From: a virus
Lineage: Duplodnaviria > Caudoviricetes
Virus record (IMG/VR): IMGVR_UViG_3300025128_008224
Span: 1 to 60,277 of that record
Length of the DNA stretch: 60,277 nt
Direction: 5' to 3' (one strand)
The notes beneath the pieces were generated by a model. It was not told where the DNA came from and ran no database searches. It saw only the letters and a program-made list of their open reading frames with translations. Of the stretch, positions 34,710-60,277 are shown one piece after another (within the stretch, counting starts at the first letter, position 1; each line of letters begins with the position of its first letter). The position numbers were made by a program, and so were the translations under genes.

Positions 34710-35583
34710 TTTCTATTTCTCCGATCTCGAAGATATTATACCATGAATCTTTGTTTAGGTTTATGATTTTAATATTTTTCTTCTTGGCGCTTTCGGCAAT
34801 TATACGCAGATCGTTTAAAAGATTTTCGCGGACTCCATCCAACTTGAAACCAAGAGAGGGGACGTGTCTCGATTCATCTGCATATCCTTTATGATAGTCC
34901 AGGTCGGCGCCGGTTACATAAATGGGATTACACCCCATTATAATAGCAAACGAAAGCATGTGGAACAATACTGTGTCACCAGTGCTGTAATGTTCTTCGT
35001 GGTCTGTGTACTTTTGTAGTTCTTCTTGGATTGTTAATCTGTTTTTGGAAGCCCTCTTACAGCAGTTTCCTTGGCGGCCAATGCCATGGCTTAGAATACC
35101 AGAAAACCCTGCGCCATCTTTGTAGCGAGGGGAAGCCCACATGGTCTTGTTATTTCCGTATGCGTCGAAATCAAAGTTCTTATTCTCCATTACATGATTT
35201 CTAAAGGCGGTAACAATATCTTTACAGGCATGCCCATTGAAGTGTCTTTGGTCATATCCATGGTATTCGCACTTTATGTTCTTCTTGATAAATGAATAAT
35301 CTGTGAGATCTACTGAATCGGCAAAAAGAACTGGGACATTGAAGCGGTTGATGTGCTCTTCCATGCTACGCATTGTTCTCTCTGTGTTTGCCAGGATCCA
35401 ATAGTCTGGAGCATTATCGAAGATACCAAGCCAGTCATTGGGAGAAAATCTAAGAAGTTTATTCTCGGCTTGAAGATTTAGTATTTGTTCTTTAACTGGA
35501 TTTAAGCTTGGGCCATGGCAGGCGATGACTGCTGGCTTATCTTTCTCTCTATCAATGAGGTTATCAATCTTGATCTCGGGCAT
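34702..35583 (-). CDS. Maf / DUF115 (MptE-like fold) putative nonulosonate glycosyltransferase
   Basis: PAVIACHGPSL and TVLFHMLSFAIIMGCNPIYVTGADL motifs; sits beside NeuA/NeuB. Confidence 0.7.
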   Translation of the reverse strand: MPEIKIDNLIDREKDKPAVIACHGPSLNPVKEQILNLQAENKLLRFSPNDWLGIFDNAPDYWILANTERTMRSMEEHINRFNVPVLFADSVDLTDYSFIKKNIKCEYHGYDQRHFNGHACKDIVTAFRNHVMENKNFDFDAYGNNKTMWASPRYKDGAGFSGILSHGIGRQGNCCKRASKNRLTIQEELQKYTDHEEHYSTGDTVLFHMLSFAIIMGCNPIYVTGADLDYHKGYADESRHVPSLGFKLDGVRENLLNDLRIIAESAKKKNIKIINLNKDSWYNIFEIGEIESV

Positions 35584-35584
35584 T

Positions 35585-36550: not shown

Positions 36551-37893
36551 CTAACCTTTTCCTCAAAGAAGACGTCTACAACCTTCTTGATGTAGTCAAG
36601 CTTTTCGTCTGTTATGCCGGCAAAAGTTCCCAAGAAGAAAGAATTGGTGGTTACCAAGTGGGCAACCGGGAATGTTTTATCAAGGCTTCCATATGGGCCA
36701 CGAAGGGCGTGATATCCAGGGTGGTACAGAATGTTTCCAGAAAAGTATGACCGCGTTTGAATCTTGCAGTCTTCCAAGAAGGAAACAATATCCTGTCGGC
36801 TGAACGGCGCGTCTTCTTTGATTGTCAGCAAGAATGCAAACCAATTCGGATCTGACTTATCATTTGCCTTTGGAAGATGGAAGTTTTCGTTGTATGGTTC
36901 GAATATGGCCGAGAGCTTTGCAAAGTTGTCTCGCCTTGCTTGATCAAGCTCAGGGAGCTTTTTGATTTGTTCTAAACCCATGGCAGCCTGAAGCTCTAGG
37001 GGCTTGAGGTTGAATCCGATTTCATCAAAGACATAGCGATGGTCGTATGTGAAATCAGGAAGGTCGGGGAGCCATGCTTGGAATCTGTTTCCACAAGCAG
37101 AGGCAGCCGTAACGTTGCCTGGCCTTCCTGTGTTGCAATAGCATGCACGACCCCAGTCTCTAAAACTAGCAATTGCTTTTCTAACCTTTGGGTCATCTGT
37201 TGCAATGAAACCGCCCTCGCCCAAGGTCATGTGGTGGGCAGGGAAGAAAGAGCAAGTGGAAATGTGCCCAAATGAACCAAGCGGTTTGCCATCGTATTCT
37301 GATCCGAGGCCATCGCAAGTATCCTCAATGAAAATGAGATCATGGTCTTTTACAATTTGCATTACACGATCCATGTCAGGTGGATTACCCAGAACGTGTG
37401 CAAAAACAATTCCTCTGATCGAAGGATCCTTCTTAAGTACAGCCTCAACCTGATCCAAATCCAAGTTTAGATCTGGCAAAGTCACGTCGACGAATACTGG
37501 TTCAAAGCCGTTTTGAATTAGCGGATTGACCGTGGTCGGGAAGCACACGACCGGAGTGATGAACTTCGCTCCAGGCTGGAGGTCATAAAGGTATCGTGAT
37601 TTCAAAGCAGAAATGGCCAAAAGATTAGCCGAGCTACCTGAGTTTGTTAGTGAGCCGAATCTCTTACCCATGAGGTGGGGGAATTCCATCTCAAACTCTC
37701 TTGCCTTCTTTCCGAAGATCAACCACTCATCAAGCAGATTATCAATGGCGGCCACATATTCGTCACCATCGAAGACAGGGCCGGAATAAGCTAGCCAATC
37801 TTCTCCAGCTTTCCAGCTTGAAGCGTCTCTCTTTTCTGTAACGTACTCTCTTACGAGATTCAAAATTTGTTGTTTCTTTTCTTCAATTGACAT
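36547..37893 (-). CDS. rfbH: CDP-4-keto-6-deoxy-D-glucose 3-dehydrase (RfbH/DdhC, E1)
   Basis: NSGSSANLLA; FFPAHHMTLGEGG (His in place of the aminotransferase Lys); RDWGRACYC...C cluster; YDHRY. Confidence 0.9.
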   Translation of the reverse strand: MSIEEKKQQILNLVREYVTEKRDASSWKAGEDWLAYSGPVFDGDEYVAAIDNLLDEWLIFGKKAREFEMEFPHLMGKRFGSLTNSGSSANLLAISALKSRYLYDLQPGAKFITPVVCFPTTVNPLIQNGFEPVFVDVTLPDLNLDLDQVEAVLKKDPSIRGIVFAHVLGNPPDMDRVMQIVKDHDLIFIEDTCDGLGSEYDGKPLGSFGHISTCSFFPAHHMTLGEGGFIATDDPKVRKAIASFRDWGRACYCNTGRPGNVTAASACGNRFQAWLPDLPDFTYDHRYVFDEIGFNLKPLELQAAMGLEQIKKLPELDQARRDNFAKLSAIFEPYNENFHLPKANDKSDPNWFAFLLTIKEDAPFSRQDIVSFLEDCKIQTRSYFSGNILYHPGYHALRGPYGSLDKTFPVAHLVTTNSFFLGTFAGITDEKLDYIKKVVDVFFEEKVR

Positions 37894-38737
37894 TTTGTGC
37901 CTCTACGATACTATCATACACTTCTTTTATGCCTTTTTTTAGTCCAATTAATTCTAAATCAAGTGCTTCAAGCTTTTTGCCGCATCCAGTATACGAAGAA
38001 GCTTTTTCCTTATCATTAACGGTTATTTTTATATGGTTGTCACCAACTCTATCGATTGTGTTTGCCACATCCATTAAGCTGTACTTACGACTATAACATA
38101 GATTTAGATCCTTCGGAAGGTTTTTACCTAGGTTTTCAATATAGTGGGTAACAACTTTATACAGATCCTTGACATAAAAGAAGTCCATTTCTCTATCCTG
38201 GTGGATTTCTATTGGTTTTCCGTCCAAAGCCTTAAGAATAGAGGCCTTGATCATTCTATCACTGTCTTCCTTAGCGCCGAAGCAGCCAAAAAGCCTAAAG
38301 TTTATAATGTTTGTATACATTTCCGCGATTTGTTTCGCTATAATACTTTTCGACAAACCATAATAGTCCTTGGGATATCTTTCATGTATTTGCTCCTCTG
38401 TCATGTTTGATATGTCCTGAGTTCTATCAAACTCTGCCCCGGATCCGAAGTTAATCATTAACTTATATTTGCTGCAGTTTTTTCTAAGGTTTTCAAACAT
38501 GGTTATGTTTTTGAACATGTTGATATGAGTATCCGGCTGGTTGCGCCTTCCGCCCTTTACGGCTGTGTGGATAACAACATCGACATCGCGATCATTTAGG
38601 AATGAAGCTACCTGTTCAGGATCCATTACATCCAGATTATCTCTGTTCGTCGCAATTACATTATAACCATCGCTCTCAAAGAGAGGGATCAACTCTCTTC
38701 CTAGAAAACCATTGCATCCAGTGATTAATATATTCAT
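37883..38737 (-). CDS. NAD-dependent sugar epimerase/reductase (extended SDR)
   Basis: Likely start MNILITGCNGFLG at 38737; FGSGAE; YGLSK (YxxxK). Confidence 0.88.
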   Translation of the reverse strand: MNILITGCNGFLGRELIPLFESDGYNVIATNRDNLDVMDPEQVASFLNDRDVDVVIHTAVKGGRRNQPDTHINMFKNITMFENLRKNCSKYKLMINFGSGAEFDRTQDISNMTEEQIHERYPKDYYGLSKSIIAKQIAEMYTNIINFRLFGCFGAKEDSDRMIKASILKALDGKPIEIHQDREMDFFYVKDLYKVVTHYIENLGKNLPKDLNLCYSRKYSLMDVANTIDRVGDNHIKITVNDKEKASSYTGCGKKLEALDLELIGLKKGIKEVYDSIVEAQNVN

Positions 38738-39210
38738 CTTTTCAAGTTCAAATAACAAGGAGAGTCACCATATAAAAACTCAGGCAACAAATCCTTTAGC
38801 TCCTCTTCGGTTTCCGGATGATATGTTGTTATGTTATCAAAACAAGACATGATTTTCTTATCATCCTCGGCCCAGTGGGAGAAGCCAAGATATCCATAAT
38901 CTTGGTCTCTTCCGCCACCTACTAACTTAACAGGGATCTTTTCATGGTTCAAGTAATTTCTAATCAACTCAAACGGACGGTAAAGTAAAAACGGAGTAAT
39001 TGAGTAAACCACGGGGATCTTGTTTTCCATCGCTAATCCAACTGACGTTCCAATCATCAACTGTTCAGCAGAGCCAACATTGTGGTAGCGATCCTGATAT
39101 CTTCCTCTTATTTTGTCCCAGAGACCATAGCCTAAGTCGCCGGTGAGCAGATAGATATCCTGGTTTTTAGACATCTCCTCATGCAGAAGTTTAGCGAATG
39201 ACTTTCTCAT
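38734..39210 (-). CDS. Transketolase-like pyrimidine-binding subunit
   Basis: Likely start MRKSFAK at 39210; LTGDLG, NVGSAEQLMIG, YSITPFL, GFSHWA. Lacks the usual third (C-terminal) transketolase domain. Confidence 0.85.
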   Translation of the reverse strand: MRKSFAKLLHEEMSKNQDIYLLTGDLGYGLWDKIRGRYQDRYHNVGSAEQLMIGTSVGLAMENKIPVVYSITPFLLYRPFELIRNYLNHEKIPVKLVGGGRDQDYGYLGFSHWAEDDKKIMSCFDNITTYHPETEEELKDLLPEFLYGDSPCYLNLKR

Positions 39211-39859
39211 CGAACTCCCGGTATCTTTTGAGGCCTGCTTTTGCCAAGTTGTAATCCTCTTCACTCATTATGTGATAATGTGCGTTCAACCCTCTCAAAA
39301 ACGGAAACTGCTCTACGGAAGTGTATCTCAGATTAATCTTGGGATGAAATGCCTTCAATCTTTTTGTCAAGTACTTTACATCAACTTCATCATAAGCCGC
39401 GTACCCATTTATATTAACATAAACTTTTAGATTTGTCAATTTATTTTCTTCAATAAATCTCAACGCTTCCCAGATTGAACCCTCTGCGCTTTCGCCATCA
39501 CTTATCAGGCAGTAAACATCTCTGTCGGGGTTGGCCAATGCTCTACCGACAGCTACCGTTAATCCCATTCCCAGGCTTCCAGTGGAGCAATAAAGTTTGT
39601 TTTCCTCGTCGCGATGCGGATGGCCGCCGTGCTTTTTAAAGAGTTTTTCTGCGTCTATCCCATGATATTTTTCAACCACAACGTAAAGAGCTAGAGCAGC
39701 GTGGCCTGAAGATAGAATGAATATGTCGTCTTCTTTCATGTTTGAATACATTTCATCTATTATTTCCAACGCTGAAAAGTAGCTTCCCAAGTGGGATAAA
39801 CGGTTGGAGTGCGCTATGTCTAAAACTCTTTCTTTTAAAGATTCCACTTTTCTCTCCAA
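39191..39859 (-). CDS. Transketolase-like thiamine-diphosphate-binding subunit
   Basis: SHLGS, FILSSGHA, GHP, STGSLGMG, and ThDP motif SDGESAEG...NINGY. The real start may be the GTG at 39847. Confidence 0.87.
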   Translation of the reverse strand: MERKVESLKERVLDIAHSNRLSHLGSYFSALEIIDEMYSNMKEDDIFILSSGHAALALYVVVEKYHGIDAEKLFKKHGGHPHRDEENKLYCSTGSLGMGLTVAVGRALANPDRDVYCLISDGESAEGSIWEALRFIEENKLTNLKVYVNINGYAAYDEVDVKYLTKRLKAFHPKINLRYTSVEQFPFLRGLNAHYHIMSEEDYNLAKAGLKRYREFDEKVIR

Positions 39860-40569
39860 TAATCTTGAATCATCTTATCATAGTTTGTGGGTTCTTTTAT
39901 AACATTCCATGTAGCCTGACCTTCGTGCCATCGATAGTAATAGCCAGTCCAGCGATTGCCTGGCCAAATAAACACCTCTTTGTCAGCCAATCTACAATAT
40001 AGGTCGTAGTCTGCGGCGCCTCCGTATTTTTCAGGGTGAGTTACCAGGAGGCCATCGTCGAACAGTTTTCTGTTGAAAACCACGGTGGGACTATTGGCCG
40101 GGCACTTCTCCATTGTTGCTGATTTAAACTCAGCGAGGGAGGAATAAGAGTGAGACATGTCTGCCATGCTTTGTAGGGTGGCGCCAAGGTCGTTAATGTT
40201 TCTAATTGGACTTTGGAACGCAAAGATCTTATCTGGTGCACTCATTATAAACTTTAAACAGTCACTCACATAATCTTTGTCCAAAACATCATCTGCCGCC
40301 AAAGTGAACAAATACTGCCCCGTGGACAACTCAAACCCCTTGCCGCGTGCCTCATCCCAACAGTTTGGGTAAATATTGGGAGCGGAGTCCAGCTTGAGAT
40401 TGGGATGTATCTTTTGTAACTCTTCTAACATGGCGACGGTCGAGTCCGTACTCTCATTATCAACTGCGATTACCTCCACGTCTTCGTGGGTCTGATTTAG
40501 GGCAGACATAACACATTCGTTAATCCATTTTTCCGCGTTATAACAAGGTATGATTATGCTAGCTTTCAA
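39835..40569 (-). CDS. GT2-family glycosyltransferase
   Basis: SIIIPCYNAEKWI, VDNESTD, LAADD, DYDLYCR. Confidence 0.92.
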   Translation of the reverse strand: MKASIIIPCYNAEKWINECVMSALNQTHEDVEVIAVDNESTDSTVAMLEELQKIHPNLKLDSAPNIYPNCWDEARGKGFELSTGQYLFTLAADDVLDKDYVSDCLKFIMSAPDKIFAFQSPIRNINDLGATLQSMADMSHSYSSLAEFKSATMEKCPANSPTVVFNRKLFDDGLLVTHPEKYGGAADYDLYCRLADKEVFIWPGNRWTGYYYRWHEGQATWNVIKEPTNYDKMIQDYWREKWNL

Positions 40570-41480
40570 GACTTCAACTCCAACAATTCTTTTACTCGAT
40601 TAATGTATGTGTGGTTTTCCAATATATTTGTTTTATTTGCTTCTTTAATAGAATCTAGATCAAAGTCCATGTACTTCGTAATCAACTCTGCCATTTCTAT
40701 TGGGTTTTCGGCCATGGGTACTTCTGGGAATTCTTCTACCAAGATGTTTGTTCTATCGCTAACAACAAAACCATTCAATCCTAAAGTCTTGTATGTTCGC
40801 TCATTATGTTCCAAGCCGAGGATTCTCTGATAATTGTCGTGAAGGTTGATAGGCAGTTTTGAATTGAATATCATCTTTGCCTCGTCCTCGATGGAGAGGG
40901 AATCCACCCCTTTGTGAATAAAGATTCCGCATTTTAAGTTCAGCTTCTTGATTTCAGAGAAGTGATCGATCATGATCTTTCTCTTTTCATTGAAGCCGTT
41001 GTTGGCCCAGCTACCAATGTAGCAAATATCAAAAGCATACTTCGAATCTTCAACTGGCTTGTAGCTAAAATGATCGAATGCCATCGACACCCTGTTAACC
41101 TTCTTCCATTTGTTCCAATAGTCTGTCCTGTCGGCATTAATAAAAGCCCACAGATAAACATTGTCCATTTGATTTATTTTCTCGATTACACCATCTGGTT
41201 GTGGCGTGAGCCAGTTTGGATGTGAACCCCATGGTTGTACAAAGTGGTTCGGCGATACAAACATATATGCACGGCGGGCCTTTGACAGAATATCCAAGTG
41301 TTCTTCTTTTTGCACCTCGATATCATAAGTCATCACATCAAACTCTGCACTGGTATCAATATCATCCAGAGTGTCGTAAAACTCCGTCTCATACCCTTCG
41401 TGCCTCCACGCCTCATCATACCCTTTATAGATCCAATACCACGCTCCGTAGATTTTAGAATTCTTAATGTATACCTTCAT
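40566..41480 (-). CDS. GT-B glycosyltransferase, CgeB/Glyco_trans_1_2-like
   Basis: Likely start MKVYIK at 41480; DICYIG, SKLPINLH, NERTYK, ILENHTYINRV. Confidence 0.75.
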   Translation of the reverse strand: MKVYIKNSKIYGAWYWIYKGYDEAWRHEGYETEFYDTLDDIDTSAEFDVMTYDIEVQKEEHLDILSKARRAYMFVSPNHFVQPWGSHPNWLTPQPDGVIEKINQMDNVYLWAFINADRTDYWNKWKKVNRVSMAFDHFSYKPVEDSKYAFDICYIGSWANNGFNEKRKIMIDHFSEIKKLNLKCGIFIHKGVDSLSIEDEAKMIFNSKLPINLHDNYQRILGLEHNERTYKTLGLNGFVVSDRTNILVEEFPEVPMAENPIEMAELITKYMDFDLDSIKEANKTNILENHTYINRVKELLELKS

Positions 41481-41481
41481 A

Positions 41482-42330
41482 TCAACTGCCTTGGAAAAAA
41501 TCAAACACCATGTTGGGGATGTCTATTCTCTTCTGTTTCATTACCTTGATGAGGTCGTCGCCCTTCTTCTCGAACCATGGCTCCTGAGAGGCTCCAACCT
41601 TGTCGTTGGTTATAACCTTCATTCCCATCATTCTGGCCTCAACAACCACTCGGGAAAGAGTTTCTGGAGTTTGTGGGAAAAAGACGAATTTATCATTTGC
41701 ACCAAGAAGCTCCAAAAACTTTAAATATGAATCCTCCTGGATTAGATCATAATCCCACTTTTTATAATCGCAGAAACGAACTGCGTCAATTGTATTCTTG
41801 TGGGGAATATTGGATTGCATAACAGAACACTTGTCCTGCTTTGACTTGTTACACATCTCCTGCAACTTTTTCAAGCTTTCGGTTGACCATAGATTGCCGC
41901 CGACACTGTGGATATTTGTTATATCTAAGTTGGCACGAGCGATATTTGCGTGAAACGTGGATTGACACAAGACTGCTTTTGCGTTCTTGTAAAAATCATA
42001 ATTTATAATACGATCTTTTGGTGCTCTATAATTTGGATATTTGGCTGGATCTCTTAAGGGGAGGTATTTATGGTCGTGCTCATAAATAATGTAATTTGCA
42101 TTATCGGCGAGTTGGGCCTTTGTCTCTTCATTCAACTGAACAAAGTTGGCTACAATGAACTTGGCATCCTTGTTTTCAAGGATCATTCTAGGTGTAACGT
42201 GTCTTGAATTGATCTTTGTGACGTCATGGCCAGCAGAATCAGCTATGCGGATAAACTCTTCGTTATTGAGTTCTCCTCCCCCCAGTATACCGTCTTCTAC
42301 AAATAGGTCTGCTATAAATATGATTTTCAT
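41482..42330 (-). CDS. GT-B (GT4-like) glycosyltransferase
   Basis: GGGE N-terminal loop; ETLSRVVVEARMMG (E-x7-E). Confidence 0.75.
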   Translation of the reverse strand: MKIIFIADLFVEDGILGGGELNNEEFIRIADSAGHDVTKINSRHVTPRMILENKDAKFIVANFVQLNEETKAQLADNANYIIYEHDHKYLPLRDPAKYPNYRAPKDRIINYDFYKNAKAVLCQSTFHANIARANLDITNIHSVGGNLWSTESLKKLQEMCNKSKQDKCSVMQSNIPHKNTIDAVRFCDYKKWDYDLIQEDSYLKFLELLGANDKFVFFPQTPETLSRVVVEARMMGMKVITNDKVGASQEPWFEKKGDDLIKVMKQKRIDIPNMVFDFFQGS

Positions 42331-43613
42331 TATGCATGAACTTGCGGATCCAAGTTTGATAGCCAGTCTTCTATCTCTTGCTCCTCTTCCTTGTATACGG
42401 CGTCTGCGAATTTAGCATACATATCTTCTTCTTTAAAGTTATTCAAGATATACTTTTTAAGCGACACAGCGGTTTCCAAGTACTGATCATGATTTTTATA
42501 GACATCACGCAGGCGCATTTTGTAACTTCCCTGGTCTGGGTAAGCCCACATGGACTCTTGCATCAAAACGCCATCCCAGACTGCTTCCGGCTGAATAGGT
42601 TGGAGGGTGAATTCCACCTTTGCGAAATGAGCCTTCATAACAGTGGTTGTCTTTTTACCCTTGCCCTTCTTTCTCTCCTTGACGGGAGCAAACAAGAAGT
42701 CGCACTGGCCGCTCCAGCCGGCCGTGATCACTGGGAGACCGTTGTATGCCGCTTCGAACATTGGTAGTCCGTAGCCCTCGCCGTGGGACAGCGAAACTAG
42801 AGCCTTGATACGCTTGTCTCTGTAAAGTGATGTCATCTCACCATCTGACATGTCTCCATGGACAAGATAGATCTTGCACTTTCTCTGAGGATAATCCTTT
42901 AACAAATTACCCAACCTTCTCTCTGTGTGCATCCTATCAATGATGGCGTCGCATGCGATGGAAGTCTTCACAATTAACCCGACCTCAACGTCAATGAATT
43001 CTTCGACAAACCAGCGGATTGTATTCTCCAGGTTCTTCCTGGGGCCCCACTGCATTACTGTCAAAAAGTTGAAATCAGTAGAGAGATCCAACTCGATCTT
43101 CTCTGGCTTTGGGTTTCGTACTGGATAATTTACAACCTCAATTGGCGTGGTGCACCGGAAGTTGTCAATCATTTTGCCGGTTTTGTTGTCTTGCGCTTGA
43201 TAAACGGTTTCCTCAAAGATGTTCTTTGCATGGTTCGACACAACTACAATCTGATTCATTAATTTTGACTTCTCAATCCAAGCAGGGGCTACCGCAGTTG
43301 TTTCGATTCCTGCTGTGTATCCGATATTTATCGGAGCCATCGGCTCCCATTCGTTAGGAATAGTAACCTGCAATGAAATATCATATTGGCCGCCGGCTTG
43401 CTGATGTTCAACGGTCTTTGTCACCAATTCATCAATCCAGCGGCGCTCCTCTGTGTCTTCATGGATCCAACTAGATTGACCCCAACCAACCGGGTGGATG
43501 TAAATATCAAACCTATCTTCGTGTGCTCTCAGTGAGCGTAGCGCAAAGCGAGCTTGCTCACCATAACCGGACCTTGAAAGAAGCGGTCCACGAACTAATA
43601 TTCTCTTCTTCAT
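42330..43613 (-). CDS. GT4-family glycosyltransferase
   Basis: Likely start MKKRIL at 43613 (ATGA overlap); SRSGYG, RKN, SHGEGYGLPMFEAA. Confidence 0.88.
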   Translation of the reverse strand: MKKRILVRGPLLSRSGYGEQARFALRSLRAHEDRFDIYIHPVGWGQSSWIHEDTEERRWIDELVTKTVEHQQAGGQYDISLQVTIPNEWEPMAPINIGYTAGIETTAVAPAWIEKSKLMNQIVVVSNHAKNIFEETVYQAQDNKTGKMIDNFRCTTPIEVVNYPVRNPKPEKIELDLSTDFNFLTVMQWGPRKNLENTIRWFVEEFIDVEVGLIVKTSIACDAIIDRMHTERRLGNLLKDYPQRKCKIYLVHGDMSDGEMTSLYRDKRIKALVSLSHGEGYGLPMFEAAYNGLPVITAGWSGQCDFLFAPVKERKKGKGKKTTTVMKAHFAKVEFTLQPIQPEAVWDGVLMQESMWAYPDQGSYKMRLRDVYKNHDQYLETAVSLKKYILNNFKEEDMYAKFADAVYKEEEQEIEDWLSNLDPQVHA

Positions 43614-44890
43614 TTTATCTCCGTCAGGGCCCAAGACTTGTAGTTCTTTCTTGTATCCCAGGAACCTTGGTTTTCAATAATATCGGTAAAAATCCTATCC
43701 CACGAATCAACAAACTTGTCCATGGAGTAATTGTTCAGAACATGTTGTCTGCCAAGTTTGCCCATATTCTGTCTCTCTTCCTTCGGAAGGTGGTAAAACT
43801 TTTCCATTGTATCGAGAAATTGTTCCTTTCCAACCCTATCTTCATAAATCCAGGGGATTTCCTGGGAACCAATAATAGCTTTTGAATCCGGATCCAGACC
43901 AAAGCCAAACCAATTCTCACCGTCGGTCACTTGTTCTTGAAGTCCGCCGGTCATATTAACGATAATTGGAGTCTCGCAAGATAGCGATTCGAACGTGGCC
44001 AATCCGAAACCCTCTGCATCAGAAATGTTGATTGTGCAATCCACCATATTGTAGAGCATCGCAATGCTTTCTGGGGGGAGCTTATCCTTGGAAATAACAA
44101 CTTCTCTGTTATCCAAACCCAAGTGGTTGATAACTTGATATAAGTCCTGCCCATGTACATCGTGGGGATCTGTGTGCATAACAAGTGTTGCTTTGTCCCT
44201 ACCAATACGATTTAAGAACTCGTCAAACCAGAAAATCAAAGTACCGCTTTGCTTTCTTCTTGCGTTTCTGTTGTTCCAGAAGAAGATCATCTTTTCATTT
44301 CCATCATTGTCGACTTCAGGGAAGTGATCCTTCTTGAATTTCTCTACGACAGGGTTATCATAGCGTGTGAACATCTCTGTATTGACAGCGTGAGGCAAGT
44401 ATTCCGATTGTACATCGGGGACAACCTCTTTGATAATCCTGTCTGTTACTTTCGAAATACAGGCAATGAAATCATTTGACTGGTACCACGGACGGTTGAA
44501 CGTCGGGGCGGGAAAGTTATCCCAAACATGGTAGTAGACCATTGGAACTAGAGGTCGGATTTCATTTTCCATCTGCCACAACCAGGCCCAGAAGCGGGGG
44601 TCTGTCATAAACCAAAGAATGTCGGGCTTTTCTGTTCGAAGAAGAGAGCGAATCATATCTGGATTACCGTATCCATCAACTGGGTGCATAACCCAATCCT
44701 CTCCCCACTCCTCAGTCTTCACAGGGTTGTAGTCTTGATGTTTGATTGCTCCGCAGAGACAGATGAAGCTGTATTTGCCAGTCTTCAGCATCCCCTCAAT
44801 CATGTATCGTGTTTGAATCCCTACACCAGAAGGGTGTAAGGGGTGATCGCTCAAAACGAGGATCTTAGTCTTTTTATCTTTATCTACCAC
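43610..44890 (-). CDS. GT4-family glycosyltransferase
   Basis: SDHPLHPSGVG, NRNARRKQ, SDAEGFGLATFESLSC. Confidence 0.88.
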   Translation of the reverse strand: MVDKDKKTKILVLSDHPLHPSGVGIQTRYMIEGMLKTGKYSFICLCGAIKHQDYNPVKTEEWGEDWVMHPVDGYGNPDMIRSLLRTEKPDILWFMTDPRFWAWLWQMENEIRPLVPMVYYHVWDNFPAPTFNRPWYQSNDFIACISKVTDRIIKEVVPDVQSEYLPHAVNTEMFTRYDNPVVEKFKKDHFPEVDNDGNEKMIFFWNNRNARRKQSGTLIFWFDEFLNRIGRDKATLVMHTDPHDVHGQDLYQVINHLGLDNREVVISKDKLPPESIAMLYNMVDCTINISDAEGFGLATFESLSCETPIIVNMTGGLQEQVTDGENWFGFGLDPDSKAIIGSQEIPWIYEDRVGKEQFLDTMEKFYHLPKEERQNMGKLGRQHVLNNYSMDKFVDSWDRIFTDIIENQGSWDTRKNYKSWALTEIK

Positions 44891-46875: not shown

Positions 46876-48198
46876 TTATAATATTTTGGCTGCCAGGGTG
46901 GCCACTTTGCTTCGTTCGCCTTTTTGCAATGTAATGTGTCCCGCGAGGCCATATTCTTTAAATTTCTCTACTGCGTATGTAAGGCCGTTGGTTGTTTCAT
47001 CAATGTAGACATTATCAATTTGTTCCACATCTCCGGTTAAAACAATCTTTGTTCCTTCACCTACTCTAGTAATGATAGTCTTTAATTCGTGACTTGTTAA
47101 GTTTTGTGCTTCATCGATGATAATAAAAGCGTTGGAAATTGATCTACCTCTAATATATGTTAACGCCTCAATTTCAATTGTACCATCTTCTACGTACATG
47201 TCAAGCGTTGTTTTGTCGTTACCCATCAAAAACTTCAGGTTATCTTCCATTGGAGCCAACCATGGTGTCATCTTTTCTTCCATGGTTCCCGGGAGGAAGC
47301 CAATATCTTTACCCATTGGTTGAATTGGTCTAGATACCAACAATTGCTTATATTTATTATCGTGTGCGCCTTCTCCCAGAACTTGTTCTAAGCCGGCTGC
47401 GAGAGCCATTAGAGTTTTTCCTGATCCAGCTTTGCCAACCAATGTAACAATTGGTATATCTTGATTCATCAATAGGCTAAGTGCAAACGTTTGTTCTTTG
47501 TTTCTAGGGCGAACTCCCCATATTCCGTTCTTATATTCGCCTATCCTTTGAAGCGGGGTGTTATAAGCAACGAACCGGCTCAAAGCGGTCTTCTTTTCAT
47601 TTGAATTAGATACAAGCATCACAAATTGATTTGGTTGTACTTTGACCTCATCCGGGTCGAGAAACACATCGTTTTTCTCATAAAACCTATCTATCACCTC
47701 GTCATCTATCAAATGAGTTATAAATCCTGTGTAGATCGACTGAGAATCGTCTACTATTTGGCCGGCTATATAGTCCTCAGAAAGCAAGCCGAGGGAATCA
47801 CATATTACGCGCATGTTGATGTCGCGGGAGACCACTATAACTTTTCTTTTGGGATTGGCTTCTTTTTCTGCTAGCGCAGTGCCTATGATTTGATTATCTG
47901 GTGTTGTTGCGTCTAGAGACTTGGGCAGTAAAGAACTGTCAAATGGTTTAACAGATAATATCCCCTTTCCTCTGCCTATTCGCACACCCTTGCTCAAACT
48001 TCCTTTGGCTCTGAGCAGATCAAGATAGCGGATAACATTTCTAGCGTTTAGACCTACGCCATCCTGTCTTTTTTTGTGATTGTCTATTTCTTCGAGTACT
48101 TTTAGCGGTAACACTATATCGTTGTTTTTGAATGATTTTATAGATGTGGCATCCGTTAGGCAGACGCTGGTATCTACAACATAGATTTTTTTAGTCAT
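46876..48198 (-). CDS. phoH: PIN-PhoH (PhoH2/YlaK-like) ATPase
   Basis: N-terminal PIN domain (YVVDTSV, VLEEID, PDNQI, SRDINMR); Walker A GKAGSGKT; GFLPG; YIRGRS; IIDEAQN; GDVEQID. Confidence 0.93.
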   Translation of the reverse strand: MTKKIYVVDTSVCLTDATSIKSFKNNDIVLPLKVLEEIDNHKKRQDGVGLNARNVIRYLDLLRAKGSLSKGVRIGRGKGILSVKPFDSSLLPKSLDATTPDNQIIGTALAEKEANPKRKVIVVSRDINMRVICDSLGLLSEDYIAGQIVDDSQSIYTGFITHLIDDEVIDRFYEKNDVFLDPDEVKVQPNQFVMLVSNSNEKKTALSRFVAYNTPLQRIGEYKNGIWGVRPRNKEQTFALSLLMNQDIPIVTLVGKAGSGKTLMALAAGLEQVLGEGAHDNKYKQLLVSRPIQPMGKDIGFLPGTMEEKMTPWLAPMEDNLKFLMGNDKTTLDMYVEDGTIEIEALTYIRGRSISNAFIIIDEAQNLTSHELKTIITRVGEGTKIVLTGDVEQIDNVYIDETTNGLTYAVEKFKEYGLAGHITLQKGERSKVATLAAKIL

Positions 48199-54592: not shown

Positions 54593-55948
54593 TTAGTTTA
54601 TAAACTGAGCCCATCTCCTGTATGTTTCATTCAGGGCGGGTTCGGTGGGTATTGGAAGCTTTTCAAGCTCTCTTGCCTTTTGTAATTCTTGGTATGCTTT
54701 CTGATGTTCTCGTCCAAACTTATAATCTGTACCATGACTTGGAAGCATTGCAGCCGCTCCGCCCTGGTCGGCAAACTGCACGTCAAGATCGCCATAGAAC
54801 TTATCAAAGTCAAAATCAGGTAGCTCTTCTATGTCATGTACAAACCTTCCGGATCTGGTTTTGATCGGTGCAGGTGTCGGGAGAGGCTCCTCTGGTCTCT
54901 CAAAGCGTGGGGAGGCGATCTCTGGTTCGCTCGGCCTTCGCGTTGCTATCTCAGGCCTGTTGCTGGGCTCAGGCGGAGCTTGTGGTGGCGCCGGCTTTGG
55001 CAACTCTATTTCCGGCTTTGGTGCGGTAGCCACAGGAGAGGGTGTGTCCGTAGTAGGCGGAGTGGGCGCAGGGGGTTTATCTGGTACTTTTGTTTGCAAA
55101 GGTGTTTGAAATTGTTCCGGCTTAATATTGTCCTTGATGGCGCCCAGGGTCAAATCTTGTATTTTTGATCTCATTTTGCCGAGATCTCTGTCGGACTGGT
55201 CGGTATACAGTGACAAAACATATTTGTCGTTGATTACAACAGAATAGTTCAAAGTGCCTTTGTAATAGCCACCCTTACCATACATTGATTTAATAGAATC
55301 TTTACCATATCCTGCTTTTTCCAACTGCTTATTCAAGCGATCTTTCAACCCTTTAGCGCCGGTTCCACCTTGCCTCTTCTGGATATAAGACAAGACTTCA
55401 CTGGCCTCGTTGTGATATTCTGAATCTGGATCATTCTTCATGTTGACAAGAAGCGACATGAACTTGTTATAACCTTGTGGAGTTTGCTGATTGTATCTAC
55501 TTCCCCAGTGCACCCCTCCGATGGAATCTCCTAAGCCAAGCTTATTTAACACTTCTTTTGCCTGGTCTCTGCTAACTCCATATTGCTTGCTGTATTTTTT
55601 GTAATATCCTTGATTTTTGGGGTCTTTTCCTGGAACACTGGACATATCGCTCAAGGCTCTATTAACCCTGTTCGAACTTGAGGAGCCTCCGGCATAGCTT
55701 ATAAGCTTATCCAACTCTTCCGGGGACAGTCGACGAATCTTTTCACCTGTTCTATTGTGAAGGGCGCCTTCTTTTGCTAGTACAAGATTGATGAAAGCCA
55801 GAACCGGCTTGTTCATCGATGCGCCGTACATGGATTTGTTCTGGTCGATGCCAGCGATTGGATCTTTACCAATCTCTCCAATAGAATAGCCATGCTTAAG
55901 CTTGGCTTCGTTTAAAAACTCTTCCCAATTTTCTAATAACAGTTTCAT
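54593..55948 (-). CDS. MKL-leader protein with serine beta-lactamase/PBP-like domain and Pro-rich linker
   Basis: Likely start MKLLLENWEEFLNE at 55948 (ATGA overlap). Motifs ASMNK (SxxK), SSN (SxN) and GKGG (KTG-like) in the correct order. P/T/E-rich segment; C-terminal LNETYRRWAQFIN. Confidence 0.65.
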   Translation of the reverse strand: MKLLLENWEEFLNEAKLKHGYSIGEIGKDPIAGIDQNKSMYGASMNKPVLAFINLVLAKEGALHNRTGEKIRRLSPEELDKLISYAGGSSSSNRVNRALSDMSSVPGKDPKNQGYYKKYSKQYGVSRDQAKEVLNKLGLGDSIGGVHWGSRYNQQTPQGYNKFMSLLVNMKNDPDSEYHNEASEVLSYIQKRQGGTGAKGLKDRLNKQLEKAGYGKDSIKSMYGKGGYYKGTLNYSVVINDKYVLSLYTDQSDRDLGKMRSKIQDLTLGAIKDNIKPEQFQTPLQTKVPDKPPAPTPPTTDTPSPVATAPKPEIELPKPAPPQAPPEPSNRPEIATRRPSEPEIASPRFERPEEPLPTPAPIKTRSGRFVHDIEELPDFDFDKFYGDLDVQFADQGGAAAMLPSHGTDYKFGREHQKAYQELQKARELEKLPIPTEPALNETYRRWAQFIN

Positions 55949-57621
55949 TTTATAAGTTGAGCCCATCTTTTATACGATTCTTGTAAAGCCAATTCGCCTT
56001 GTTTTTCGATTTCTTCTGGATCTTGCCAATATTTAGCCTCGTGACCTTCCTGTGCTACCAAACCAACATCTATTAGAGCCTTTGATATTGCAGAATATCC
56101 TTTGGTACCGAAACTTTCATCAATACGAAGCATTTCATTGAGAAATACTCTAAGCTCATCTAGATCTTCAATATGGCTATAATCAACAACACCCTTGAAA
56201 TAGGGGCCTCCGCCGCGAACATCGTCAGGAACAGACTCTAGATCATATATATTCATTCCGGTGGGGGCGATTGCGTCTCGAATGATGGCGTTGATTTGTT
56301 TGAGTGTTTCCGGTTCTTCCCATGGCACAGTCCATTCCATGGTTTTTCTATGTCTTGCAAGGATTATGGGCAAATTAATCCAAATATAAGAGTTGAGTTC
56401 GATGTGACTTTCACCAGTTTCGTCGGGAAACTTCAATTCGAATTCCAAGTGTTCTACCTGATCTTGATAGCGCTCCATCATTTCTATGTAAGGTTCTTTG
56501 CCAATTGAAGGGTTTTCTTGTGCATCTTCTTGCGCTACGTCGATTATATACCTTAATGTACTCATGGCCCTTGTTTCGATGGCCTCTACACTTTCTTCAC
56601 GCTGTTGGTCAATTGTATCGTAATCTTCTGGTTCTGAGTTTATTTCAATGTCGGTATTATAATCAGCACCCAACTCTTTTACGGCTGCAGCGAATTCCAT
56701 TACGTCTTCTTTTGAAACGTCTTCACGACTTACCATATGGCCGCCCGTAATATGCTGATACCAAAGGAGGGCACCTTGAGTTACTTTTTGATTGAGAAGG
56801 TTCTGTACTATTGCTTGAGTTGTTTCATCAAAATCCATCGGCTCATCCCAAGCATTCCATGCGCGATTGAATGCTCCACCTGGCTCCATTTCAAGGGCAA
56901 TCTTCTTATATTTGTTATCATTGGAAAGGTTGGCTAGAAACACAAAATAGAACGTTTTGCCTTCTGCAGAGTACTCATCAAAATAGTTTGAAGATTCAGA
57001 TGCTGAGATACACCATTTTGTTCCTTTGCCATAATAACAAGAAGCTTCAGTGGTCTCTGGTCTGATCATAATATAGTCATCGTTTTCGTCGACTATTCTG
57101 GAACCTTCTTTTGCTTTTATTTTCTCTTGTTGTTTTCTGTCCTTCGCTGACTCAACAGATGCCTGCTTTGTAACTGCTGCGTTGACAGTTGAATTTAGTT
57201 CACCAAAATCTTTAATTCTATTAATGTCTCGTTGTTCTGGTTCAACATACTTCTGGAGAAGATGAAATGTTTCCAACTGTCCTGCAATATTGCTGGCGAT
57301 GCCCCAAGGAGATATGAGCTTGTCTATTTTTTCTGGCTCAATCTCTTCATCTTCTGGCCACTGCTTTCCCCAAAAAGGTTCTTTGCCTCTTTTAATGTGA
57401 CCATCAATAGTATTTTTCAAAATCCTAGCTGCGCCCATGAGATATTTTTGGTTTTCAGAAGGATCTCTTTGAACAAGAACATCAAGAAGACTTTCGCCAT
57501 CCAATTCTTCTCTTTTCTTAGCTAATTCAGGGAACTTTCTTTCAGCGTCTTGAATGCGGCCTTCAATGAGAAGTTGAGATTCTGTTAAGTATTTCCGCCA
57601 ATTTTCAAGTATGAGTTTCAT
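55945..57621 (-). CDS. MKL-leader hypothetical protein (558 aa)
   Basis: MKLILENWRKYLTE; central ASCYYGKGTKWCIS motif; C-terminal LQESYKRWAQLIK. Confidence 0.75.
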   Translation of the reverse strand: MKLILENWRKYLTESQLLIEGRIQDAERKFPELAKKREELDGESLLDVLVQRDPSENQKYLMGAARILKNTIDGHIKRGKEPFWGKQWPEDEEIEPEKIDKLISPWGIASNIAGQLETFHLLQKYVEPEQRDINRIKDFGELNSTVNAAVTKQASVESAKDRKQQEKIKAKEGSRIVDENDDYIMIRPETTEASCYYGKGTKWCISASESSNYFDEYSAEGKTFYFVFLANLSNDNKYKKIALEMEPGGAFNRAWNAWDEPMDFDETTQAIVQNLLNQKVTQGALLWYQHITGGHMVSREDVSKEDVMEFAAAVKELGADYNTDIEINSEPEDYDTIDQQREESVEAIETRAMSTLRYIIDVAQEDAQENPSIGKEPYIEMMERYQDQVEHLEFELKFPDETGESHIELNSYIWINLPIILARHRKTMEWTVPWEEPETLKQINAIIRDAIAPTGMNIYDLESVPDDVRGGGPYFKGVVDYSHIEDLDELRVFLNEMLRIDESFGTKGYSAISKALIDVGLVAQEGHEAKYWQDPEEIEKQGELALQESYKRWAQLIK

Positions 57622-57642: not shown

Positions 57643-58860
57643 CTAGGATTCAAGTGACCAATCTCCCTGAGAGTTTGTGATCATCCAGAACCCAGACCCG
57701 GACCCAACGATGGTGATAAAGTGTCCAATGTCCGAACTTGTTCCAAGAATTAAGTCTTTGTCTACTCTCCCCACACCATTGCTCCCCAGAACTACCGTGC
57801 TTCCATCTTTGTCAAGCAGATTGCCCATGAACTTTTCGCCGGATGCTGGGTTAATTTGGAACCCCTGACCGGGTGTCCCTGCATACCAGAACGTATACGT
57901 TATGCCTGGTGCAGTGGAGGGCAGATTCACAACATGGTTAGATGGAGTAGCATTACCGGACTGGGGGATTAATATACCTGACTGTGATGTTGTAAGGGTT
58001 GCCCCGTTTGAAAGCGCGCTCCCGACGTACTGCTTGTGCCCGAGCATTCCGGTTGCCATGAGGCCTCCAGATGGGGTGATGGTCAGATAACCATTGTCAT
58101 CAACAGCAAAGGTCGCGGCGTCGGATCCGTTGTAGGACAATTTTAATTGGGTTCCGGCATTAAATACCTCCAATTGCGTATCCGGATCGCCAACGCCGAT
58201 TCCAACGTTGCCGTCCTGCTCTATGACCATCCTTATATCACTATTGGTTTTGAATGTGAGGTTGTCGTTAGTATAATTATTGTATGCAATCCACTTTCTT
58301 GTGCCGTTCTCGTAAAGTTCAAGACCGGGGTGGCTGTCCACGTCGCCGTCAATTTTAATTCTGGGGTCATTTCCAACAAGCTTGATATCGCCATCAACAT
58401 GTAGCTCTACATCGGGAGATCCTACGCCGTTGATCCCCACCCTGCCTGTGGATGCGTCTACCTTAAATGCGGGGTTGCCTTCGTTGGAACCGTTACCCTT
58501 AACAATAAAGTCAATATTGTTCGAACCATCGTTAAAAGTAAGCTCATGTGGAGCGGAGTTTTTTTTGTCTAAGTTAATGAATGATAGGTTGCCTGCCTTT
58601 AAAGTTACCGCATTGTCTCCGAACCTCATCCACGTATCGGCATCACCGTTGTGATAGATGTATTGATCGACCCCTATGTCTCCGGCTACGTCGAGAGTAT
58701 AATCTGGGCTCGTGGTGCCAATGCCCACCTTGTTTTGGTCTGCATCAACAAACAAGGTGTTGCTATCTAGATTGACGTCATCATCGCCGCTGCCTAAATC
58801 AATACTCCCGTCCACGTTTAGCGAACCCGTGATGCTAGCATTGCTTCCATATTCAGACAT
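57643..58860 (-). CDS. Fibre/spike-like protein with VGIG beta-repeats
   Basis: Three repeats KVGIGTTSPDYTLDVAG / RVGINGVGSPDVELHVDG / NVGIGVGDPDTQLEV, typical of trimeric phage fibres. GGAG lies 10 nt before the ATG at 58860. Confidence 0.7.
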   Translation of the reverse strand: MSEYGSNASITGSLNVDGSIDLGSGDDDVNLDSNTLFVDADQNKVGIGTTSPDYTLDVAGDIGVDQYIYHNGDADTWMRFGDNAVTLKAGNLSFINLDKKNSAPHELTFNDGSNNIDFIVKGNGSNEGNPAFKVDASTGRVGINGVGSPDVELHVDGDIKLVGNDPRIKIDGDVDSHPGLELYENGTRKWIAYNNYTNDNLTFKTNSDIRMVIEQDGNVGIGVGDPDTQLEVFNAGTQLKLSYNGSDAATFAVDDNGYLTITPSGGLMATGMLGHKQYVGSALSNGATLTTSQSGILIPQSGNATPSNHVVNLPSTAPGITYTFWYAGTPGQGFQINPASGEKFMGNLLDKDGSTVVLGSNGVGRVDKDLILGTSSDIGHFITIVGSGSGFWMITNSQGDWSLES

Positions 58861-58930
58861 TATTACCATTCTCCGCGGGGAAAGAATATTCTTTCATATA
58901 CTCTCGCCAATTTTCAAGTAGGAGTTTCAT
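58853..58930 (-). CDS. 25-aa leader-only micro-ORF MKLLLENWREYMKEYSFPAENGNNV (possibly a remnant)
   Basis: Its ATG overlaps the TGA of 58927..59298 and its end overlaps the fibre start. The first 14 residues are identical to the upstream gene. Confidence 0.45.
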   Translation of the reverse strand: MKLLLENWREYMKEYSFPAENGNNV

Positions 58931-59300
58931 ATTAATTCTTGTGCCTTTTCTTCTGCATACTCAAATTCCTCATCGCTGTATGTGCCAAATACCTTTTCTA
59001 CTTCTTCTGGAGATGTTTCACGATAGGTGTTGCTTTCACCACTTATATTGTCAAGCACGTTTTCCAATGGCATCCTGCCGCGGCAGTCAATCGCTTCTTT
59101 TGTTTGAGAATCATAAGCAAAAACATGATGCATGTCTCCTCGTTCATCAACGATGCCATACATGGGAAAATCAGAAATTCCACTAATGGCTTGTGCTAGC
59201 AACGAGCAGTCGCGCCTCATAAAATTAATATATTCGGAGGGATGGTGTTCCTCTTCCTCTTTCATATACTCTCGCCAATTTTCAAGTAGGAGTTTCATAT
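58890..59300. repeat. Exact 43-bp direct repeat (58890-58932 and 59258-59300)
   Basis: Both copies read tctttcatatactctcgccaattttcaagtaggagtttcatat on the plus strand. A 26-bp one-mismatch copy is at 57596-57621 and a more diverged copy ends at 55948. Confidence 0.95.
58927..59298 (-). CDS. MKL-leader protein with putative Cys-His-Asp (papain/transglutaminase-like) domain, 123 aa
   Basis: True start MKLLLENWREYMKE at 59298; the track extension to 59442 runs into the tmRNA. Motifs DCSLLAQA, HHVFAY, IDCRG. Confidence 0.6.
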   Translation of the reverse strand: MKLLLENWREYMKEEEEHHPSEYINFMRRDCSLLAQAISGISDFPMYGIVDERGDMHHVFAYDSQTKEAIDCRGRMPLENVLDNISGESNTYRETSPEEVEKVFGTYSDEEFEYAEEKAQELI

Positions 59301-59337
59301 ATGGTAAGTAGTCTAAAAGAAAGGATAAGAAAAAAAA

Positions 59338-59683
59338 TGGTGGAGGCGTCGGGAGTCGAACCCGAGTCCTAAATGCTTCCAAAAATTCGTCATTCACAAG
59401 GTTAGGTTGTTGTATATTGAAATCTGGCCACAACCAGTCCAAATTCCTGGCTAGTACTTATAGCACTAGGCCCAGCCACCACTCACCTTATTAAGGTAGT
59501 GAGAAACCTAAAAATGCCATTTTGGTTAACAAGGGATGGCTCCCCCGGATTACGCAGCTAGTGCGTATTCAGAAAAAGTGTCAGTATTGGCACTTATCAA
59601 GTTCAGCGTTTTTACAGAGACCGTCGCTGCCCTCTGCCCTGCACGAATAATCTTCGACACCCAGTCGATACCAATTCGCCCCC
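59338..59683 (-). ncRNA. ssrA: tmRNA (one-piece), tag peptide ANTDTFSEYALAA
   Basis: 5' GGGGGCG pairs with 3' CGCCTCC-A-CCA (G3-U alanine identity); T-arm CTCGGG-TTCGACT-CCCGA; resume codon GCC after ATAAGT; tag ORF at 59550-59591 ends YALAA-stop. Confidence 0.97.
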
Positions 59684-59711
59684 ATATTTTAAAAGATCAA
59701 AAGAAAATGAA

Positions 59712-59864
59712 GGCAGGGGTTGGACGAGTTTCTCGATCATCGTCATACTAGCCTCTCTTCCACTGCTTACGTAGTAAGCCCTTCGTTAGAGGCATAGAAG
59801 GTTTCGCGCAACTCTTATTGGCTACACTTCCTGGCCGTTGTTAAATATCTTTGCAACCCCTGCC
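59712..59864 (-). ncRNA. Candidate structured non-coding RNA of unknown class (~153 nt)
   Basis: Perfect 11-bp closing stem GGCAGGGGTTG/CAACCCCTGCC. Inner helices GCCTCT/AGAGGC, GCTTAC/GTAAGC and GACGA/TCGTC. Lies between a strong promoter and the tmRNA. Confidence 0.5.
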
Positions 59865-59934
59865 ATTGTTATGTATTAAATCTGTCACGAATACATAGGA
59901 TGCCTCCGTTGTTAATTTTACCTCACTTAATATA

Positions 59935-59963
59935 ACTATATCGCTGCAGCTTCAAAATGTCAA
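59935..59963 (-). promoter_or_regulatory. Sigma70-type promoter driving the structured element and tmRNA
   Basis: TTGACA (59958-59963), 17-bp spacer, TATAGT (59935-59940). Confidence 0.85.
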
Positions 59964-60277
59964 GTTTTATCTTCGAAATAAGTGTCGGTGCCGTATTTTT
60001 TTTCTAATGCATGTAATCTAGGCCGGTCAAGACCTAAAAACCTGGCAGCTTCACCTTTTGTTCTGGTTATGGAAAGGGCTGTTTTGAGAAGAGCCTCTTT
60101 AACAATATTGTTGATTCCTTTCCACAGAGGAAATCCATATAGCTTATTGTTAATGGACTTGGCGGCTAACTCTAATTTAAGCGCAATTATCTCCTCTAGG
60201 GAAAGTGAGTTAAGAAGAACTTCAAATTCTTCTGTAATATCTTTATCATTTCTTAATTTTTTTGATATACTGTAGTT
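59960..60277 (-). CDS. Fis-like helix-turn-helix protein, 5' end outside the window
   Basis: Open frame from the right edge: ...IVKEALLKTALSITRTKGEAARFLGLDRPRLHALEKKYG...DKT-stop, resembling the Fis/NtrC HTH. Not in the ORF track. Confidence 0.7.
   Translation of the reverse strand, partial: NYSISKKLRNDKDITEEFEVLLNSLSLEEIIALKLELAAKSINNKLYGFPLWKGINNIVKEALLKTALSITRTKGEAARFLGLDRPRLHALEKKYGTDTYFEDKT

Follow-up and report, generated by a model that had tools for sequence, protein, structure and literature searches.

The stretch of DNA analysed here, hereafter the window, is the whole 60,277-nt IMG/VR virus record IMGVR_UViG_3300025128_008224, which is assigned to the Caudoviricetes, is estimated to be 33% complete, and carries genes for a T4-type baseplate, PhoH and sugar modification. 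The nearest cultured relatives were reached through a baseplate protein, at only 30-32% identity, and in cultured phages no match was found to the region 59300-60000 by blastn, nor to the HTH protein described below by tblastn. At gathering thresholds, the Rfam families recognized in the window are one tmRNA and two tRNAs, and nothing else.

The tmRNA belongs to a compact array of features close to the right end of the window, all of them on the minus strand. An HTH-type gene, truncated by the end of the window so that its 3' part remains (59960..60277), is succeeded by a sigma-70-type promoter, TTGACA-17-TATAGT (59935..59963), that agrees with the consensus at 11 of 12 positions, and by a leader with a GGAGG Shine-Dalgarno-like box and a 3-codon mini-ORF encoding MYS (59885..59907). 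Next come the element that is the subject of this analysis (59712-59864), a U-rich spacer of 28 nt with no promoter-like site (59684..59711), and a one-piece tmRNA, encoding the tag ANTDTFSEYALAA (59338..59683), which was called by ARAGORN and scores 120.8 bits with RF00023. An earlier note, made from the letters of the window, had placed a promoter upstream of an unexplained structured RNA and a tmRNA 28 nt past its end, and both are indeed there. Contigs from RNA runs (X1-X4) match parts of the tmRNA at 88-99% likeness and end near 59671-59679; none of them falls within 59684-60000, which has no bearing on the element either way.

Farther into the window, a large cluster on the minus strand (25742-44890) includes nucleotide-sugar epimerase, aminotransferase and glycosyltransferase genes, and a PhoH-like gene occupies 46876-48198. 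Several neighbouring, otherwise different ORFs share the N-terminal words MKL(I/L)LENWR(K/E)Y, both in the window (55945-57621, 58927-59298 and 58853-58930, all on the minus strand) and in L003, a contig with a divergent copy of the element (ORFs starting at 2094, 3001 and 3369). One of these ORFs is only 25 aa long and sits just upstream of a tail-fibre-like gene; the words may reflect either an N-terminal module common to these ORFs or a scar left by recombination.

The element as a single sequence

At its two ends, the element has GGCAGGGGTTG (59712-59722) and the exact reverse complement of this 11-mer (59854-59864), the inverted repeat behind the perfect 11-bp terminal stem that had been described at the outset. 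The minus strand folds at -52.2 kcal/mol, a value that none of 200 shuffles reached (-37.3 +/- 3.8; z -3.96), but the plus strand folds equally well (z -4.49), so that thermodynamics cannot name the strand. The 11-mer, with up to one mismatch allowed, has 2 matches in the window against 0.59 expected, and 12 of 100 shuffles gave at least 2. With both strands folding and the repeat within the range of chance, the single sequence cannot show an RNA. The minimum free energy structure holds a hairpin, AACGAAGG / AGUGGAAG, around GCUUAC-UAC-GUAAGC. ORFs that overlap the element encode only 25-71 aa, and their frame is not conserved but shifts between homologues, which argues that the element is not coding and agrees with the original view that there is no credible ORF.

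Homologues in marine viral and metagenome contigs

Neither a 30-mer taken verbatim from the window nor its gapped pair of P1 arms has a match in viral contigs, P1 not being conserved in sequence, and the element used as a query against loci gathered by protein anchors (2 + 7 + 28) returned nothing by either blastn or nhmmer. The first homologue, L035, came from a weak 17-nt blastn match between spacers, and inspection of this locus revealed the whole architecture. A pattern built on the shared motifs then yielded 5 true elements among 20 matches in viral contigs and 26 among 30 in metagenome contigs, the remaining matches being dismissed as unrelated on inspection of the coding context in which they lie. 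With the window added, the true elements make up type A, with 23 distinct sequences in 32 copies from marine viral and metagenome contigs, and three divergent forms were found beyond it. The single match of the pattern in the genome collection, in a Clostridiales MAG, is a chance occurrence that scores at most 6.7 bits with the covariance model described next.

This covariance model, R1, was built from 12 L035-type sequences with the window excluded, and it matches the window over the full length at 38.0 bits (E 5e-8). All type-A loci searched were recovered by R1. When its filters are turned off, the window copy scores 30.1 bits and the next-best match in the window 12.6, which implies a single copy in the 60 kb. 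Of the divergent copies, L003 reaches 31.8 bits; L033 reaches 16 bits (E 0.027) with filters off and is missed by the default filters; L029 is not found by R1 even with filters off. L029/L040 and L033 represent two further sequence types, located in the usual position of the element, in which all of its parts can be seen on inspection. Both have the junction UGGCAU and the P4 loop GAGCGAGGAG, and the junction in L003 is UAGCAA. A type-B pattern gave 6 matches, comprising 3 known contigs and 3 chance matches in coding sequence. Given that the type-A search pattern fixed AGGCUAGUAUG and CGAGA, the invariance of both in type A is partly imposed; types B and C differ, and the true junction is therefore U-R-G-Y-A-W.

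The element is by no means universal among the relatives of these phages, many of which have a tmRNA without it. In 35 HTH-anchored loci, 17 of them with a tmRNA, R1 finds only L035, and L029, L033 and L040 were recognized by eye or at 16 bits.

Covariation and the pseudoknotted consensus

Covariation was assessed on a model-based alignment of 24 distinct rows, which was fitted to the nested helices and hence favours them when 95.4% of the cells form standard pairs compared to 75.8% in shuffles. Changes on both sides were observed in 22 of the 31 pairs, and the covariation score is 0.500 against 0.187 for the shuffled alignments, with 0 of 500 shuffles as good and slid controls at 0.07-0.10. 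The pseudoknot stem S1 was absent from the model, yet its pairs 75/94 (CG 13, UA 5) and 76/93 (CG 13, UA 9) covary; a proposed fifth pair of S1 is unsupported, with 13 of 16 cells unpaired. Read by eye and in an anchored parse, which demanded partial pairing so that its perfect scores are partly a matter of construction, the variants of S1 include CCUC/GAGG, UUUC/GAAA, CCUUC/GAAGG (the window), GGUUC/GAACC and GCGCUC/GAGCGC (L003), and those of the second pseudoknot stem, S2, range from GUCUAC/GUAGGC to GUUCGU/ACGAAC (L033) and GUCUGC/GCAGAC (L003). Paired cells make up 99.3% in S2, where AU/CG and UA/CG covary, and 100% in the P4 hairpin, where 4 of 5 pairs show double changes. At the second position of S2, 20 of the 24 rows have a U.G pair, which would be a C.A mismatch on the opposite strand, so that the RNA strand is that of the tmRNA. 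In thermodynamic terms, nine homologues are ordinary (z from -0.39 to -3.47, with P1 predicted in 8 of 9), and the case accordingly rests on covariation rather than on stability.

Taken together, comparison of the homologues makes it nearly certain that the element is a conserved structured RNA. The earlier note had proposed a structured non-coding RNA on the strand of the tmRNA, and the proposal is now upheld by what it had named as the means of checking, homologues upstream of phage ssrA genes and the covariation among them. The predicted consensus is P1 enclosing a variable region, an H-type pseudoknot, a junction, and a hairpin, P4, stacked on the 3' strand of P1. P1 is formed by GGCAGGGGUUG (59854..59864) and CAACCCCUGCC (59712..59722); it is GC-rich in the window, measures 8-15 bp in well-parsed members, and changes on both sides in 10 of 10 pairs across the homologues. 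The variable joining region (59802..59853) spans 14-52 nt in most members and 118 nt in the doubtful parse of L078; its hairpin, P2, is lineage-specific and missing from part of the family, about half of the alignment rows being gapped there.

The strands of the pseudoknot follow in the order S1 5', a 3-nt loop, S2 5', AAC, S1 3', loop L3, S2 3'. In the window, the S1 5' strand CCUUC (59797..59801), which pairs with GAAGG (59780-59784), is separated by loop L1, UAU (59794-59796), from the S2 5' strand GCCUCU (59788..59793). Loop L2, AAC (59785..59787), is AAC in 23 of the 24 parsed sequences and UAC in one, and reads by eye as UAU in L029 and CAU in L003. The S1 3' strand GAAGG (59780..59784) leads into L3 (59757..59779), which in the window consists of the hairpin GCUUAC-UAC-GUAAGC and AGUGGAAG, and then the S2 3' strand AGAGGC (59751..59756) closes the fold. 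L3 is 7-8 nt long in L035-type members and 18-52 nt elsewhere, and (A)GUGGAAG is its conserved 3' end; as judged from this alignment, the inner hairpin is a lineage-specific insertion in L3. The 8x8 purine-rich internal loop that had first attracted attention thus fares differently in its parts: the hairpin that contains it does occur in the minimum free energy structure, but the loop is not the key feature, for GAAGG pairs with CCUUC in the pseudoknot and the inner hairpin is inserted. Past S2 come the junction UAGUAU (59745..59750), invariant in type A, in part because the search pattern imposed it, and P4, GACGA-UGAUCGAGAAAC-UCGUC (59723..59744), which abuts the P1 3' strand and has a loop of 11-13 nt with a GCGAGRAG core. 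The window copy combines all the features by which the family can be recognized, namely, P1, the S1/S2 pseudoknot with AAC, the URGYAW junction, and a GCGAGRAG-type P4 loop that abuts P1.

Genomic contexts of the element

Upstream of the element, the context is consistent. In 30 of the 32 loci, tblastn with the HTH protein finds matches upstream of the element, and the other 2 loci are cut; full-length homologues of this protein match no Pfam family. Promoters with 10-11 of 12 consensus positions were identified between the HTH gene and the element in all 4 loci scanned (the window, and L055, L052 and L069 at 10 of 12). In L033 and L071, the element begins about 20-24 nt past the HTH stop with no clear promoter between them, which suggests that in these two loci it is a 3' UTR rather than a separate gene. 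The leader usually has a strong Shine-Dalgarno box and a mini-ORF, whereas L071 appears to lack the leader. The encoded peptides, each followed directly by a stop, are not conserved (MYS in the window; MLLNNGFM, MI, MF, MN and MM), and the distance from the mini-ORF stop to P1 varies from 8 to about 70 nt. Minigenes of the form AUG-NNN-stop, with 2-3 codons and a good Shine-Dalgarno sequence, sit right after the early promoter in the window (59885-59896, minus strand) and in the leaders of L052, L055, L065, L074 and L090; they are reminiscent of the bar minigenes of lambda.

Downstream, the 23 distinct type-A sequences divide into 12 with a full tmRNA, 4 with a mini-tmRNA, 3 with neither and 4 that are cut too early. 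A tmRNA or mini-tmRNA thus follows in 16 of 19 informative type-A loci, a count that does not amount to 16 independent associations because the loci come from related phages with conserved gene order. Of the full tmRNAs, 11 begin at a distance of 13-42 nt from P1, each in a distinct locus, and the twelfth (L074) is cut by the contig end. The element has been kept without a tmRNA in L055, L065 and L090, and the L003 copy, whose P1 is followed by U7, is flanked by the genes for an AAA_5 ATPase and a zinc-knuckle protein; neither the CCHC protein nor the AAA protein that flank this copy has a homologue in the window or in the other loci. The tmRNA-less loci and the placement in L003 indicate that the element is a self-contained module, strongly but not obligatorily linked to tmRNA. 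A strict dependence on tmRNA, which the earlier note could be taken to imply, does not hold, given that 3 of 19 informative type-A loci lack a tmRNA and that L003 has the element in an unrelated place.

What separates the HTH gene from the tmRNA is a hot spot for insertions: the spacer measures 0 to 755 nt in the anchored loci and contains small ORFs in some of them. In the spacers of L012/L013 and L026/L027, small ORFs with Flp-pilin-like words (..GATTIEYG.., ..GATAIEYG..) stand where the window has the element. The spacers that follow the element in L052 and L072 are similar to the AU-rich spacer of the window. A U-rich tract after P1 is seen in the window (7 of the first 10 nt), in L072 (9 of 10) and, as U7, in L003, and is absent in L055, L090 and L073; L078 has, by eye, a canonical GC hairpin with a U run between the element and the mini-tmRNA.

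The mini-tmRNAs are themselves unusual, consisting in 78-81 nt of the tRNA-like domain only, without a tag reading frame or pseudoknots. They directly follow the element in four distinct loci, which represent two sequence types (L095 414-494, minus strand; L078 2540-2621, plus strand; L082 and L096, about 35-115 nt past the element). A 'TLD only' phage tmRNA is on record in mycobacteriophage DS6A, according to a passage in PMC4131195, where such molecules are also said to inhibit tmRNA, perhaps by titrating SmpB. A second conserved leader occurs about 60-160 nt past the element or the tmRNA in L052, L055, L063/L065 and L090, ahead of a tubulin/FtsZ-like gene (Pfam PF00091, 30.5 bits; cut-off 33), and displays, by eye, a hairpin that has a loop of 10 nt and U5 behind it and was not flagged by the terminator scan.

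Possible functions of the element

The account that we tentatively prefer, with a confidence that stops somewhat short of even, is that the element is a stable early RNA in its own right and heads a stable-RNA operon as its first cistron. Arguing for it are the promoter, the helix that pairs the two ends, the retention of the element after loss of the tmRNA, the GC hairpin and U run in some members, and the promoterless spacer. Host RNA polymerase would transcribe the element early from the upstream sigma-70-type promoter, the second cistron being, putatively, the phage tmRNA or a mini-tmRNA reduced to the tRNA-like domain. As to the co-transcription with ssrA that was proposed originally, the promoter is in place upstream and there is no credible one in the 28-nt spacer, so that with the element between promoter and ssrA, co-transcription, which itself we infer, is the simplest reading. 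Release of the element could occur by the RNase P cut at the 5' end of the tmRNA, or else by termination or RNase E cleavage in the U-rich spacer, and P1 would protect both ends of the RNA; a long P1 is typical of stable RNAs with paired ends. The element might then act in trans, its invariant loops most likely serving to bind a protein of the host or the phage, and because of its neighbours, translation or ribosome rescue would be the likeliest field of action. This stand-alone, trans-acting mechanism is a best guess only.

The main rival is that the element acts in cis, as a leader that gates the expression of the tmRNA and early genes, in the form of either a riboswitch-like sensor, in which P1 and the U tract make up a conditional terminator, or an antitermination RNA that modifies the polymerase. 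We consider this unlikely but to be taken seriously. The element lies in a leader just past a strong early promoter, its conserved junction and loop nucleotides and its pseudoknot are aptamer-like, and a precedent exists in the marine myophage Melnitz, where, as a passage in PMC9004378 has it, ssrA is located behind an early promoter together with a glutamine riboswitch. The U-rich tracts after P1 in the window, L072 and L003, and the terminator-like hairpins downstream of the element in L078 and, by eye, before the tubulin-like gene, fit a terminator as well. However, the U tract is not universal, being missing from L055, L090 and L073, and P1, which has 8-15 bp in well-parsed members and is rich in GC in the window, would be expected to form even with no ligand present. 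As regards a riboswitch in general, a U-rich tract lies past P1 in some members only, and what follows is a tmRNA, a mini-tmRNA or nothing. Downstream of the element there is an RNA gene, nothing, or unrelated genes, but no coherent set of regulated proteins. The terminator scan flagged nothing in the downstream stretches scanned and nothing at the element itself, where it is blank because P1 closes a 131-nt interior, and no alternative antiterminator pairing was found; with the stop of the mini-ORF anywhere from 8 to about 70 nt from P1, ribosome-coupled attenuation is not a common feature of the family.

Several other explanations appear less probable. A module for the processing or stability of the tmRNA precursor, which would keep the leader and the tRNA-like domain from mispairing or direct RNase P or RNase E, is improbable, for all that the element precedes the tmRNA by 13-42 nt in 11 distinct loci and a mini-tmRNA in 4, and that the AU-rich spacer is alike in the window, L052 and L072: the element was kept after loss of the tmRNA (L055, L065, L090), L003 has it far from any tmRNA, many related tmRNAs with spacers of 0-37 nt have no element, and the pseudoknot and invariant loops exceed the needs of such a role. 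We deem it very improbable that the element is a new self-cleaving ribozyme that cuts a polycistronic stable-RNA transcript; neither the window (at E <= 10) nor the other loci scanned (at E <= 5) match any ribozyme family of Rfam, the strand order is unlike that of the HDV-type double pseudoknot, and no conserved candidate cleavage site is seen, as against the compact pseudoknotted core, the invariant unpaired nucleotides and the location among phage RNA genes. Still less credence is due to a feature of the DNA itself, such as a palindromic MITE, a recombination site or an elaborate terminator. The perfect 11-bp terminal inverted repeats, the equally good folding of both window strands, and the insertion hot spot between the HTH gene and the tmRNA would all suit it, but the U.G pairs are strand-specific, no target-site duplication flanks the element, and the element is present in the window in a single copy with a terminal helix whose sequence varies among homologues while the pairing is kept, which speaks against a mobile element. 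The least probable of all is a small peptide translated from the AUG within UAGUAUG, even with AGG 5 nt before this AUG and ORFs of 10-14 codons (M-V/A-x-E-R-E/D...) starting from it in several members: a 1-nt deletion in the P4 loop of the window shifts the frame and keeps the RNA motif, the lengths and stops of the ORFs vary, with that of the window running into the tmRNA, substitutions track base pairing and not codon position, and L003 has no AUG.

A more ambitious possibility links the element to its neighbours: it could be a new class of RNA by which marine myophages take over ribosome rescue, either as a sensor of a metabolite or of translational state that gates the transcription of the tmRNA or TLD-only decoy, or by itself binding SmpB, the ribosome or a ribonuclease, as a cofactor or decoy that works with the downstream tmRNA-type RNA. 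We regard this as doubtful. Phage tmRNAs are known, but the reason why phages carry them is unsettled, and here a complex RNA supported by covariation is tied to full tmRNAs and tag-less mini-tmRNAs across widespread uncultured marine myophages. If the element acts on translation or ribosome rescue, phages would be seen to manipulate their hosts in a new way; should it be a mere orphan stable RNA, it would still be a well-defined addition to the few phage non-coding RNAs with a covariation-based fold. In either case, the element is a concrete, synthesizable object of 105-153 nt, with the L095 form at 105 nt.

Comparison with known RNAs

The supposed novelty of the element with respect to Rfam has stood up: in Rfam 15 (4227 models), no family matches the element in the window (E <= 10) or in 10 further loci (E <= 5), apart from spill-over of the permuted tmRNA family RF04321. 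In the window, RF04321 scores 43 bits across 59550-59776, under its gathering score of 47, and was rejected; it likewise reaches 45.7 bits in L033 (3259-3437) and 42.4 bits in L029 (3350-3529), where no element abuts the tmRNA, so it is the genuine 5' half of the tmRNA that drives these matches. Scores of 42-46 bits for RF04321 over the 5' halves of one-piece phage tmRNAs and the sequence upstream of them are a recurrent near-threshold artefact. The element does resemble tmRNA and permuted tmRNA (RF00023, RF04321) in that it adjoins a tmRNA and has a pseudoknot, and its P4 adjoins the 3' strand of the terminal helix in the manner of the T arm of a tRNA-like domain. A tRNA-like domain was nevertheless discarded, the P4 loop being 11-13 nt and not 7, P1 in the window being followed by UUCA and not CCA, and ARAGORN calling nothing. 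Suspected likenesses to motifs of 5S/16S rRNA and to tmRNA pseudoknots were dropped in the light of the Rfam scans, which yielded no rRNA and no second tmRNA match.

A 6S-like polymerase decoy, one of the roles suggested in the earlier note, has to be given up: the fold supported by covariation is branched and pseudoknotted, not a rod with a central bubble, and RF00013 has no match at E <= 10. The glutamine riboswitches RF01739 and RF01704 likewise have 0 matches in the window at E <= 10. The riboswitch of Melnitz is similar to the element in general terms, as a pseudoknotted RNA within the transcription unit of a phage tmRNA, behind an early promoter in a marine myophage, to go by the passage in PMC9004378; the element, however, is twice as long as a glutamine riboswitch and is closed by a long P1, and the glutamine-II sequence printed in PMC6698751 contains none of its conserved motifs. 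Full-text searches of the literature, covering the sources in part, returned no description of the motif. Fremin and Bhatt (2023) listed 8,495 unnamed structured-RNA candidates of 29-151 nt from IMG/VR, and the main text, as far as it was consulted, makes no mention of a tmRNA-associated motif (PMC10690425); the element may be among these candidates.

Two kinds of phage and bacterial RNA provide models for the alternative modes of action. The put RNAs of HK022 and the EAR element of Bacillus modify the transcribing polymerase so that it passes downstream terminators, and the element is like them in being a structured RNA just past an early promoter and before terminators; it differs in that no Rfam family of any kind matches it. 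The T4 RNAs rnaC and rnaD (species 1 and 2 of the tRNA cluster) are 119-139 nt long, are encoded in a T4-type myovirus beside tRNA genes, and are annotated as small stable RNAs. They are co-transcribed with tRNAs, and neither is known to have a function. Homology was rejected, as the best R1 score is 9.7 bits across the T4 region and 4.7 bits within rnaC, and the structures differ as well, rnaC having a tRNA-like T arm where the element has a pseudoknot and an 11-13-nt P4 loop. The element is, then, a previously undescribed RNA family of a known general kind, that of the phage stable and leader RNAs beside tRNA and tmRNA genes, and by analogy, rnaC and rnaD of T4 may offer the best parallel for the way in which it could work.
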